Assembly (NCBI GenBank): GCA_002899795.1
Contig: PPDG01000475.1
Coordinates: 1-38,709 of the forward strand
DNA: 38,709 nt
Source: Desulfobacteraceae bacterium
Lineage (GTDB): Bacteria > Desulfobacterota > Syntrophobacteria > BM002
Reading direction: 5' to 3'
In this document: positions 14,584-14,911 of the stretch, piece after piece
Position numbering within the stretch: position 1 is the first letter of the stretch
Layout of the letters: every line of letters starts with the position of its first letter
Notes under the pieces: model-generated
The model's database searches: none
Seen by the model: the letters and a program-made list of their open reading frames with translations, nothing else
What the model was told of the DNA's origin: nothing
Position numbers and translations under genes: made by a program

Positions 14584-14585
14584 CT

Positions 14586-14779
14586 CAGCTGGCAGCAGAC
14601 AGCTGGCAGCAAGCAGAAGACAAAAGAAAGACGGCGAGTTTTTTGCCAGTTGTCCGTGGTCCGTGGTCCGTTGCGAATAAAGCATAAAGCAAGGAGTCAG
14701 GAGTCAGAATTAAGGAGAAAAGACATCATGATTGAGTTTCTCTCAACTACTGGATACTGACTACTGGCTATTAACTACT
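14586..14779. repeat. heptamer arrays (CAGNNNN x6-7; GTCCGTG/AAGCATA/GAGTCAG series; NNNTACT x5)
   Basis: The 7-nt register is held over 14586-14627, 14652-14714 and 14745-14779. Confidence 0.8.
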
Positions 14780-14794
14780 CGATTCTTTGTTCAT

Positions 14795-14881
14795 CTTACA
14801 ACAAGTGACGGCGAAGCGTACTGACCTAATGACGCCGAAGGCACATGACTAATGCCAAATGCCAAATGAGCAATGCGAAAT
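14795..14881. repeat. 66-nt interspersed repeat followed by GNNNAAT heptamers
   Basis: 14795-14860 matches 35198-35263 at 61 of 66 positions, same orientation. Followed by gccaaat|gccaaat|gagcaat|gcgaaat (14854-14881). Confidence 0.8.
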
Positions 14882-14911
14882 GTTTGGTTTTGGAAGGAGG
14901 ACTTCGTTCGT

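Follow-up and report, generated by a model that had tools for sequence, protein, structure and literature searches.

The spacer between metK and ahcY in this Desulfobacteraceae genome carries chains of degenerate seven-nucleotide units, and similar chains recur in other spacers of the same contig. They raise the question whether such arrays are a slippage-prone class of repeats that is tolerated only outside genes, or whether they are functional elements of transcripts, insulators or sites of protein binding. We have analysed the whole stretch of 38,709 nucleotides, referred to here as the window, together with assemblies of the same species, a related species and unrelated genomes.

Extent of the period-7 signal in the spacers

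The arrays quoted by the original prediction for 14584-14911 are all found in the sequence as written, and this metK-ahcY spacer has an identity of 0.50 at a lag of seven nucleotides (z = 10.7). Autocorrelation against shuffled controls, the check proposed with that prediction, was carried out over the window and reveals the signal in the 7.6 kb of spacer DNA as a whole, where the lag-7 identity is 0.325 as compared with 0.254 +/- 0.005 in dinucleotide shuffles (z = 13.7), with further signal at lag 14 (z = 9.5) and lag 21 (z = 6.8). The coding DNA has no period-7 signal (lag-7 z = -1.9), in agreement with the claim that the repeats are confined to DNA outside genes.

In the window spacers there are 17 perfect tandem repeats with two or more copies of a 7-nucleotide unit (0.6 in shuffles), none with units of 6, one with units of 8 and none with units of 9-14, the longest perfect run being of 3.0 copies. 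With Tandem Repeats Finder the window yields over 20 rows of period 7 (at 9211, 10212, 16169, 17692, 20745, 27303, 27891, 35950 and 36122), all at or beside the spacers that had been listed earlier as behaving alike, and the lag-based array detector contributed 35248-35285 and 38427-38629 in addition. Repeats at the multiples 14 and 21 are likewise frequent. By location, 20 arrays are intergenic and 3 are nominally coding. Of these three, one is situated ahead of the SelB start as called and another within a doubtful ORF.

Two parts of the original prediction have to be given up. It held that arrays make up most intergenic DNA; depending on the settings of the detector they cover 13.7% (lenient) or 6% (strict) of it, the former value being compared with 0.6-3.3% over lags 5-11 and 0.9% in shuffles. 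Coverage exceeds 50% in just 3 spacers, and 14 of the 29 spacers are array-free. The arrays had also been termed phase-locked. The correlation across the spacers decays to z = 3 at lag 28 and is nil across lags 35-126, so a long-range phase lock was discarded and the register is a property of each array of 2-6 units; adjoining arrays stand back to back and are mutually unrelated in sequence.

The arrays are collected in Table 1. The genes that flank them are housekeeping genes, as judged from a Pfam scan of 30 window proteins. SelB and PdxS/T are among the gene content of the window. A 5.6-kb extension of the contig, reached via an MBL-fold protein, contains few spacers.

Table 1. Heptamer arrays of the window, with strand and position relative to neighbouring genes
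Position	Strand	Units	Context
9200-9283	+	Degenerate heptamer chain: AGCAGGC/AGATTGC-type, then CTGCTAA/CCAGCTG (reverse-complement family)	Begins 5 nt past NadA stop
10200-10241	+	AGYGCCA, then CATTTCG-type	Abuts metallophosphoesterase stop (10199); left arm of inverted pair I4
10283-10328	+	AATGCCAGAGGAGA (period 14) and AAATG-type	Right arm of inverted pair I4
14586-14627	+	CAGCTGG/CAGCAGA/CAGCAAG/CAGAAGA/CAAAAGA	Begins 2 nt past MetK stop
14652-14714	+	Three abutting arrays: GTCCGTG x2.9, ATAAAGC x2.1, AGGAGTC x2.3	
14745-14783	+	AACTACT/GGATACT, period 7 with 14-nt higher order	
14845-14882	+	ATGCCAA/AATGCCA-type	29-43 nt upstream of AhcY start; unit again at 27289-27318
16169-16201	+	GGATTTC x4.9	First base immediately after AhcY stop
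16314-16384	+	TCTAGTG x4.9, then GCTGAAA x3.4	
17689-17736	.	AATCYNC, about 6 units (GATTNNG when read along the minus-strand gene)	Fills gap between convergent stops; flanked by MltA stop (17686) and a 103-aa ORF (17729-18040, minus strand)
19884-19898	+	TCCTTTT x2.1	15 nt past stop of ResIII-domain gene
20745-20773	+	GCATAGC x4.1	3 nt past RimK-like stop; left arm of inverted pair I1
20914-20942	+	CGCTATG x4.1	Right arm of inverted pair I1; just upstream of tRNA-Leu promoter
27289-27318	+	ATGCCAA-type	Spacer between histidine kinase and thioesterase genes
27891-27916	+	GATTTCG x3.7	4 nt past thioesterase stop
28048-28162	+	Chain: CTGACAC x2.9, TTTACCG x4.9, others	Upstream of called SelB start (near 28208)
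31501-31524	-	CAGCTGA/CAGTTGG/CAGCGTG (minus-strand sense)	PyrK-PyrD spacer, 5 nt past its PyrD stop side; family of the array behind MetK, flipped along with the gene
35248-35285	-	GATTGGT/GATTGAG/GATTGCG (minus-strand sense)	20 nt past LolA stop
35950-35980	.	CGCAAAG x3.4	Pairs inversely with 36122 array at a distance of about 150 nt; overlaps LolA ORF at its uncertain 5' end
36122-36137	-	CGCATAG x2.3 (minus-strand sense)	1 nt past FtsK stop; family of the array behind RimK, flipped along with the gene
38427-38629	-	Short arrays CAGAGGT, CAGATTG, CTACTGG, GAAATGW, GCGCSRA (minus-strand sense)	RNase J-FtsK spacer; first array begins about 3 nt past RNase J stop

Variation among strains, species and phyla

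The same arrays are present in the same places in 11 independent assemblies of the species, at 98.5-99.8% identity. The assemblies stem from different projects (ENA, JGI, NCBI). Repeats can be mis-built by short-read metagenome assemblers, and on that account the arrays might be artefacts of assembly or sequencing; with 11 assemblies of separate projects in agreement, each array far shorter than a read and another species carrying arrays in orthologous spacers, such an origin is hardly credible.

Three changes in the number of units have been identified over the 11 assemblies. Strain L081 has one extra unit (+7; CTGGTGT at 16321) in the 16314-16384 array, strain L086 has one GTCCGTG unit fewer (-7 at 14652) and strain L087 one CGGATTT unit fewer (-7 at 27896) in the 27891-27916 array; partial-unit indels were absent from the arrays at these three sites in the 11 strain-level assemblies. 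The spacer at 20763-20918 of strain L086, which holds two arrays, has been replaced and shows indels of other lengths. An inversion of the segment between its inverted arrays was considered there and rejected, as BLAST indicates replacement by unrelated array-rich sequence. Variable sites amount to 1.57% in the arrays and 1.51% at third codon positions (odds ratio 1.04, p = 0.89), and to 0.67% in non-array spacer DNA, the rate in the arrays being 2.4 times higher (p = 0.005). The arrays evolve like unconstrained DNA, and this neutral rate of substitution argues against a sequence-specific function.

The related species L001 has an AhcY protein 89% identical to that of the window, with about 60% identity at 4-fold sites. 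It carries arrays in those spacers as well, immediately past the corresponding stops, but the units agree with those of the window in only 2 of 5 spacers and the copy numbers differ. GCAGCAG-type units follow the MetK stop at the position of the 14586-14627 array, about 9 AATCTRC units follow mltA where the window has about 6, and CATYTCT x8 is found behind the ResIII-domain gene where the window has TCCTTTT x2.1, while several other orthologous spacers have other units or none. The arrays are replaced or resized between species.

We consider these arrays to be probably heptanucleotide microsatellites, a form of long simple sequence repeat (SSR), that arose by replication slippage and were kept where they disturbed nothing. 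Such microsatellites would here consist of 2-6 head-to-tail copies of many different 7-nt units. An array may be seeded by a chance duplication of seven nucleotides and grow through slipped replication or unequal exchange, 7, 14 or 21 nucleotides at a time, and products of the kind expected are seen. Because point mutation would later blur the seeded array, the unit seems to drift while the register is kept. Selection would purge arrays from reading frames, since seven is not divisible by three, and likewise from promoters and the regions of ribosome binding; their accumulation immediately downstream of stop codons would be the result. An orientation that follows the gene could be due to a weaker filter at the level of the transcript, possibly selection against C-rich, G-poor untranslated RNA that loads Rho. 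For most arrays no sequence-specific function need be assumed. Of the two options raised at the outset, a slippage-prone class tolerated outside genes gives the best fit to the one-unit strain differences, the third-position-like SNP density, the turnover and the lack of coding arrays; functional arrays would agree with the placement described in the next section, and the neutral substitution rate speaks against them.

Heptamer arrays were also counted in 80 unrelated genomes (1.28 Mb), where 64 arrays were detected at lag 7 as against 13, 24, 15, 13 and 11 at lags 5, 8, 10, 11 and 13. These lag-7 arrays are about 5-fold depleted in divergent, promoter-only spacers, and the array density of the window is about 8 times the mean of the 80 genomes. 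The sharp preference for exactly seven could point to another origin, in which the duplications are footprints of 7-nt staggered cuts made by a DNA-cutting or mobile element (through target-site duplication with loss of the insert, or fill-in of breaks) and the arrays are landing pads for very small elements. Two small elements speak in favour of this: a 23-nt hairpin core, CCCCGCGACTTTGCTCGGGACAG, that lies between GCAGGCA heptamers and differs in copy number among strains, and a second one of about 50 nt at 8070-8121 that is present in 1-3 copies depending on the strain. They resemble the SDRs of Nostoc, which are small dispersed hairpin elements embedded in heptamer arrays and which Elhai and colleagues reportedly described in 2008 as inserting within such arrays. 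However, the three changes of seven nucleotides took place inside existing arrays with no element nearby, no transposase or integrase was found by the Pfam scan of 30 window proteins, and the frequent multiples of 14 and 21 are those that slippage within arrays would give. The heptamer excess in many unrelated phyla (80-genome count; PMC4679880) moreover points to a universal machine, and footprints of cutting are regarded as highly improbable.

For slippage, an explanation of the unit length has been put forward by Mrázek et al. 2007, as relayed in PMC4692102 and PMC4679880: seven may be about the shortest unit whose slipped intermediate would be neither mismatch-repaired nor sensed in the duplex-binding site of the polymerase, and with longer units seeding and slippage would be far rarer. 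It counts against the slippage origin that this conjectural argument is all it offers to account for so marked a preference for 7 over 8.

Position, orientation and pairing of the arrays

The arrays had been noticed to start often near stop codons, and a few unit families to occur in both orientations; both observations hold and can be made more precise. In 9 of the 24 tandem spacers an array has its start no more than 5 nt from a stop codon, and arrays cover 33% of the first 40 nt past stops as against 4-5% of the last 40 nt ahead of starts. All six arrays adjoining minus-strand genes are flipped, and the CAGCNGG, GATTNNG and GCGCATA families are sense-oriented behind stops on both gene strands. 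The sense strand has more G than C in 19 of the 26 arrays (p = 0.03), and units recur across unrelated spacers about 3-4 times as often as a rough chance estimate (about 1.3) gives. Beyond the window, an automated count over all loci, with few arrays and crude gene calls, gave 9 arrays in this orientation against 4. The position and orientation of the arrays are non-random. Provision of back-up stop codons in all frames was considered and discarded as a general rule, since GGATTTC, CAGCTGG, GTCCGTG and AATGCCA have no stop triplet.

A model of unconstrained space alone predicts an enrichment behind stops but not abutment within 5 nt. The flipping of the minus-strand arrays, the bias to G and the recurrence of units likewise count against the slippage origin. 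Starts next to stops, orientation with the gene and frequent inverted pairs leave room for a role at the level of RNA. The arrays could be functional parts of 3'-UTRs or intercistronic RNA, serving behind the stop as an unstructured G-over-C platform that binds one single-strand RNA-binding protein per heptamer, as RNase E-like sites, or as a means of excluding Rho inside operons. Candidates for the binding protein are cold-shock-type OB-fold proteins or S1. The sequence GGAUU fits the RNase E-like consensus. Besides the placement, the recurrence of unit families across spacers and in L001 and the lack of an intrinsic-terminator excess in the window are in favour of a transcript role, and so is a metagenome scan with (GGATTNN)x4, in which about 18 usable, unrelated bacterial contigs were among the matches listed and several of these have GGATTNN arrays immediately after stops. 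Binding of CspB, with one protein per heptamer, has been described (PMC4679880) and would suit the same role. Against it stand array SNPs at the level of third codon positions and above that of other spacer DNA, very diverse units, the array-free half of the spacers, the other units or none in several orthologous spacers of L001, the 9 to 4 count beyond the window and the lack of any Rfam family match to the arrays, the tRNA-Leu being the sole Rfam match in the window. A transcript role is on balance rather unlikely. Most of the contigs listed by the (GGATTNN)x4 scan are low-GC rumen contigs that end in (GGGGATT)n, which presumably represents ciliate telomeres.

Among 37 pairs of neighbouring arrays, 13 are related as reverse complements and 1 is related directly, whereas far-pair controls give about 1%; such pairing is not expected if slippage events are independent. 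The inverted pairs of the window are 20745/20914 (I1, with 36-nt arms, 89% complementarity and a separation of 138 nt), 10219/10306 (I4, with 23-nt arms, 87% complementarity and a separation of 64 nt) and 35950/36122. An Anaerolineae locus (L079) has four clean array-armed hairpins of -48 to -56 kcal/mol between a stop and a ribosome-binding site, and further inverted array pairs are present at L118, L144, L107 and L112; inverted heptamer arrays have also been noted in Xanthomonas (Rehm et al., PMC4692102). The basic element might accordingly be a hairpin with inverse heptamer-array arms (stop, array, loop, reverse-complement array, next gene) that acts as a REP/BIME-like mRNA stabiliser, processing site or terminator, unpaired arrays being decayed halves. 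However, a pair is found in just 2-3 of the about 15 array-bearing spacers of the window. Of the 29 spacers folded, the array-rich ones fold no better than shuffles with the sole exception of 20742-20995 (z = -4.3), which contains I1, the metK-ahcY spacer having z = -0.7, and RNA structure was rejected as a general property of the arrays. The main period-7 signal is explicable without the excess of reverse complements, and no RAYT-type gene was found among the 30 window proteins scanned against Pfam, so the hairpin is very unlikely to be the basic element. As to whether arrays might stand in for intrinsic terminators, a scan of the window gave neither excess nor deficit of such terminators; a classical one at 8008-8050 indicates that the organism does employ them.

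It is also conceivable, and clearly unlikely in our judgement, that the arrays constitute a cross-phylum system acting on the transcript or the non-template strand. They would be placed directly behind stops, always oriented in the sense direction and frequently accompanied by a reverse-complement array ahead of the following gene, and would serve as modules of binding, processing or anti-termination, or be produced by a dedicated activity that works in 7-nt steps. The GGATTNN arrays behind stops in several unrelated bacterial contigs and the Anaerolineae hairpins would be examples.

Relation to known heptamer repeats

The original prediction named the STRR repeats and the REP/BIME elements as analogues. 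The STRR heptamers of heterocystous cyanobacteria were reportedly described by Mazel and colleagues in 1990. Their units are CCCCAGT (STRR1), TTGGTCA (STRR2) and CAACAGT (STRR3). The arrays of the window resemble them in being intergenic and in having several unit families per genome, and the analogy is apt as to the kind of repeat. It does not extend to the units, since STRR1-3 form no tandem doublet in the window in any rotation on either strand, nor to the host, which is not a heterocystous cyanobacterium and belongs to another phylum; the nearest genome is that of an uncultured Desulfobacteraceae MAG (AhcY 89%), followed by Desulfobacterales matches at about 70%. STRR heptamers are cited for Calothrix PCC 7601, and cyanobacterial arrays can be far longer, as in a 26-mer of the GGGGATT pattern (PMC4692102).

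REP, BIME and REPIN elements are likewise extragenic, often lie directly after stops and form inverse pairs able to fold into hairpins. A REP unit is an imperfectly palindromic sequence of 20-40 nt that RAYT transposases spread, whereas the arrays described here are direct repeats of 7 nt without dyad symmetry of their own and are mostly unpaired. This analogy applies only to the minority of arrays in inverted pairs.

Heptanucleotide repeats are the most abundant class of long SSRs in most bacterial genomes (PMC4679880, PMC4692102). Their excess in bacterial spacers has been described since 2007, with polymerase slippage proposed as the origin (Mrázek, Guo & Shah 2007, cited after PMC4692102 and PMC4679880). 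The arrays of the window agree with this class in having head-to-tail 7-nt units, over-represented relative to other lengths, located in non-coding DNA and variable in length among relatives by whole units. They differ in their higher density, in perfect runs of at most 3 copies with many units set back to back, and in beginning at stop codons and being oriented with the gene. A Desulfobacteraceae-like lineage does not appear among the repeat-rich genomes in the summary that PMC4679880 gives of that survey.

The TAACTGA repeats of marine Beggiatoaceae, some Cyanobacteria and Bacteroidetes, for which a role in the transcript has been proposed, also occur as 2-6 intergenic copies and have an orientation relative to genes (MacGregor 2015, PMC4679880). 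In Beggiatoaceae, however, one dominant unit lies a few nt upstream of starts, whereas many units are found here, mainly downstream of stops. No TAACTGA doublet is present in the window even with 2 mismatches, the only similar array being a TTACTGA-like one at 28137. GGGAATC of Xanthomonas and GGGGAYT of Nostoc are intergenic repeats whose length varies among close species, as is the case here, and both they and the window arrays are at times in inverted pairs and contain, in one of the two orientations, the core GATT (Rehm et al. 2015, PMC4692102). These units carry G-tracts and have been examined as formers of G-quadruplexes (same source). Neither unit forms a tandem doublet in the window, and the listed window units have at most 2 adjacent G and no G-tract of 3 or more. 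Phase-variable contingency SSRs are long perfect tracts that lie in promoters or in the 5' coding part of surface or restriction genes and switch at a high rate. The window arrays are not of this type: perfect runs reach at most 3.0 copies, the neighbours are housekeeping genes and only 3 unit changes are seen over 11 assemblies.

By the criterion set with the original prediction, the arrays are members of an already described class of repeats, one without known function; the units and the Desulfobacteraceae-like lineage appear to be new. The remark that no description was known for this kind of organism stands as far as Desulfobacterales are concerned, for which none was found in the literature searched, and falls for heptamer excess in general. 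Stop-codon starts, orientation with the gene and frequent inverted pairs are not part of the earlier descriptions examined.

The preference of bacteria for 7-nt repeats is a question little studied since 2007. With about 14% of its spacer DNA in arrays and many strain-level assemblies, this lineage offers a dense natural data set, which permits the birth, growth and decay of arrays to be measured and the idea of a slippage threshold to be set against a functional model. The arrays also cause gene callers to disagree on adjacent starts, as for LolA and SelB in the window.

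Heptamer periodicity of the intergenic DNA

The heptamer feature exists, is strong and reproduces well. Every heptamer string given in the original prediction can be read in the sequence exactly as quoted, and over 20 period-7 rows are reported by Tandem Repeats Finder, almost all of them in spacers. In the 7.6 kb of spacer DNA the lag-7 identity (fraction of bases equal to the base 7 nt away) is 0.325, whereas shuffles that preserve dinucleotides give 0.254 +/- 0.005 (z = 13.7); the z-values are 9.5 and 6.8 at lags 14 and 21, with background level at lags 6 and 8. Coding regions have their usual lag-3 signal and none at lag 7 (z = -1.9). 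The metK-ahcY spacer, which served as exemplar, reaches an identity of 0.50 (z = 10.7). Seventeen perfect tandem repeats of two or more copies have 7-nt units (0.6 expected), one has an 8-nt unit, and none has a unit of 6 or of 9-14 nt; the longest perfect run has 3.0 copies. The same arrays are found at the same places in 11 independent assemblies of the host species (98.5-99.8% identity), on which ground an assembly artefact is rejected.

The extent of the arrays had been overstated. They were thought to make up most intergenic DNA, which is wrong, since a lenient detector assigns them 13.7% of the spacer DNA (0.9% in shuffles) and a strict one 6%, coverage exceeds 50% in only three spacers (54% in the exemplar), and 14 of the 29 spacers, including all those in the first 9 kb, have no array. 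The proposed phase-locked register is also not sustained: the period-7 correlation, with z = 15 at lag 7, drops to z = 3 at lag 28 and has vanished at lags 35-126, and an array therefore comprises 2-6 units. Adjacent arrays often abut without shared sequence (GTCCGTG, ATAAAGC and AGGAGTC at 14652-14707 for example), so that no common register can be demonstrated between them.

Origin and turnover of the arrays

The arrays are probably heptanucleotide microsatellites made by replication slippage and removed by selection from genes, promoters and ribosome-binding regions. They would be born and resized in whole-unit steps, neutral point mutation would blur their units, and they would be kept only where no reading frame, promoter or ribosome-binding region is broken. 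Where strains differ by an indel within an unrearranged array, its length is exactly one unit in all three events (Table). In one strain (L086) the RimK-like gene and tRNA-Leu are separated by an entirely different spacer sequence, a replacement that is likewise array-rich. An origin of the arrays from 7-nt staggered cuts or from mobile elements is hardly to be expected.

Heptanucleotide repeats are the commonest class of long SSRs in most bacterial genomes, genes exclude non-triplet units, and 7 nt has been proposed as the length of DNA gripped by the polymerase (PMC4679880, PMC4692102). Our survey of 80 unrelated genomes (1.28 Mb) agrees with the reported heptanucleotide excess, with 64 arrays at lag 7 and 11-24 at each of lags 5, 8, 10, 11 and 13. 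The window, with 16 lag-7 arrays in 38.7 kb, has about 8 times the density of these genomes and is equalled only by an Anaerolineae locus (L079). The strong preference for 7 nt might be understood as a threshold with a steep fall beyond it: a slipped loop would have to be out of range for mismatch repair and proofreading, and longer units would allow less chance seeding and less strand melting.

In strain-level alignments 1.57% of array sites (17/1084) are variable, as compared to 1.51% of third codon positions (p = 0.89, no difference), 0.67% of non-array spacer DNA (p = 0.005), and 0.58% and 0.43% of codon positions 1 and 2. Because their variability matches third positions and exceeds the rest of the spacers, the arrays are the least constrained intergenic DNA, which speaks most strongly against a sequence-specific function. 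A function at the level of the transcript is considered an unlikely alternative to slippage with selective removal.

Orthologous spacers of a related species' MAG (L001), in which 4-fold sites are 57-62% identical to the window, also hold arrays, which likewise begin shortly after the stop codons of metK, mltA and the ResIII-domain gene. The units can be recognised as relatives in two spacers only: GCAGCAG/CAGCTGG behind metK, and AATCTNC between mltA and a convergent small ORF (about 6 units, about 9 in L001). In the remaining orthologous spacers the units are different or absent.

Position, orientation and pairing

The arrays show non-random regularities of position, orientation and pairing that plain slippage does not predict. 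These could result from secondary filters on the transcript, or could reflect a role for a subset of arrays. Across 24 tandem spacers, array coverage is 33% in the 40 nt that follow the stop and 4-5% in the 40 nt that precede the next start, and nine arrays in the tandem spacers of the window start within 5 nt of a stop. In the 80 unrelated genomes lag-7 coverage is 1.34% in tandem, 0.89% in convergent and 0.23% in divergent spacers. In the orientation of the gene upstream of them, the arrays behind stops belong to a few families (Table). Those beside minus-strand genes are flipped to match (6/6), and the sense strand has more G than C in 19 of 26 arrays (p = 0.03). It is suggestive that orientation follows gene direction, a grading we adopt since outside the window GATT-sense arrays behind stops outnumber AATC-sense ones by only 9 to 4 with crude gene calls.

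Among 37 array pairs less than 300 nt apart, 13 are reverse-complement relatives and one is a direct relative, far-pair controls giving about 1%. Four spacers of the Anaerolineae MAG consist almost wholly of an array following the stop, a short loop and the reverse-complement array, ending at the ribosome-binding site of the next gene (fold -48 to -56 kcal/mol). Similar cases occur in contigs L118, L144, L107 and L112, from a metagenome scan for (GGATTNN)x4. In L118, L144 and L092 a reverse-complement partner array follows 40-60 nt on, directly ahead of the next start, and where the stop is readable (L092, L118) the first array begins 2-5 nt past it. Most spacers of the window, including the exemplar (fold z = -0.7), have no such paired structure, and hairpin modules as the basic unit are quite improbable. 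The gene upstream of the L118 array resembles, by eye, that of glycine-cleavage H-protein. Most loci of the scan (L094-L168) are short contigs of 14-33% G+C, chiefly of rumen-type metagenomes, that terminate in (GGGGATT)n on one or both sides, with opposite strands at the two ends; they look like telomeres of ciliate macronuclear mini-chromosomes rather than bacterial arrays.

Coordinates of features in the window (unless a locus is named)
Feature	Position	Remarks
metK-ahcY spacer	14584-14911	328 nt; metK stop 14583, ahcY ATG 14912
CAGCNGG family		post-stop, upstream-gene sense: MetK, NadA, PyrD, RNase J
GATTNNG family		post-stop, upstream-gene sense: AhcY, thioesterase, LolA, 103-aa ORF, RNase J, NadA
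GCGCATA family		post-stop, upstream-gene sense: RimK, FtsK
Indel +7 (CTGGTGT)	16321	strain L081
Indel -7 (GTCCGTG)	14652	strain L086
Indel -7 (CGGATTT)	27896	strain L087
Inverted pair	20745-20773 with 20914-20942	36-nt arms, 89% complementary; spacer fold z = -4.3
Inverted pair	10219-10241 with 10306-10328	
Inverted pair	35950 with 36122	
Array-armed spacers, L079	1537-1602, 13206-13287, 14737-14808, 16763-16829	inside gene rows; loop 10-25 nt
GGATTGC or GGATTTC arrays	L118 3827-3940; L144 4344-4463; L092 672-776	unrelated soil/sediment contigs, 56-71% G+C
tRNA-Leu(CAA)	20996-21083	
CCCCGCGACTTTGCTCGGGACAG element	35982-36051	variants 6351-6373, ~16236-16258, L086 ~8005-8040
TTTCTTCGCGCTCGCTTCGCTCCGCTCAGTCCC...GGGTTCCCRGTTTC element	8070-8121	L081 3020-3215; L082 3055-3210

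Known families and genomic setting

As a kind, the arrays agree with heptanucleotide long SSRs in every testable respect. No tandem copies of STRR1-3, TAACTGA, GGGAATC or GGGGAYT exist in the window, and the arrays are not members of these named families; the TTACTGA unit in the array before SelB differs by one mismatch from TAACTGA of Beggiatoaceae. They are not REP/BIME elements, since their units are not palindromic. A full-text search found no paper tying heptamer repeats to Desulfobacter* within the literature searched. The arrays are a new case, dense and with many units, of a bacterial repeat class that is known but unexplained, and their value lies in the available population data and in three testable regularities, namely start at the stop codon, orientation with the gene and frequent inverted pairs.

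The window covers part of a chromosome with ordinary housekeeping genes; those identified by Pfam include NadA, RsmA, PanD, MetK, AhcY, MltA, PdxS/T, SelB, PyrD/K, LolA and FtsK. Among 185,579 species representatives, a set that does not include the host species itself, the closest genome is L001, an uncultured Desulfobacteraceae MAG (AhcY 89% identical), followed by Desulfobacterales at about 70%. Exact-protein look-up finds the host species in 79 blocks of public assemblies, including the NCBI MAG GCA_049674305.1.

Apart from the arrays, two types of small element have been noticed. The first is dispersed, with a 23-nt hairpin-like core CCCCGCGACTTTGCTCGGGACAG lying between GCAGGCA-type heptamers; this arrangement makes a 31-nt tandem unit of 2.3 copies, with one copy fewer in strains L087 and L089. 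It recalls the very small mobile repeats that lie within heptamer arrays of Nostoc. The second, of about 50 nt, comprises TTTCTTCGCGCTCGCTTCGCTCCGCTCAGTCCC, a short GC hairpin and GGGTTCCCRGTTTC; it has one copy in the window, two in each of strains L082 and L084 and three in strain L081, the copies differing in the filling of the hairpin, and its fragment GCGGGTTCCCAGTTTC is also present in the replaced spacer of L086.

A perfect TTGACA-18-TATAAT promoter match (20952-20981) lies ahead of tRNA-Leu(CAA), directly after a CGCTATG array, and in L086 unrelated, array-rich DNA stands in place of the 170 nt that precede the promoter match. The longest LolA ORF (252 aa, 35306-36064, minus strand) spans a CGCAAAG array and the 31-nt repeats before the signal peptide; public gene calls include this ORF in some strains and omit LolA in L087 and L089, the strains short of one 31-nt copy. 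The longest SelB ORF has a TTG start at 28091 and would include a TTTACCG array (28129-28162) within 28091-28207; public calls of 640 aa start near 28208, which places this array in the SelB leader.

The array-free spacers upstream of panD and metK (11787-12087 and 13292-13413) fold far better than shuffles (z = -3.7 and -3.4), have no Rfam match at the gathering threshold and may be structured leaders. A classical intrinsic terminator at 8008-8050 (CCCCATCGGC...GCCGATGGGG followed by TTTTTTT), missed by a simple terminator scan because of its long loop, shows that the organism does use such terminators. Within genes, the DUF502 gene has an in-frame 15-nt tandem repeat (GCTCAGGGCAGGCAA x3.7, 13200-13254) that differs among strains by 15 or 30 nt, which is one or two units, and the internal repeats of 102-105 nt in a TPR-repeat gene (23269-23571) are the normal coding periodicity of TPR units.
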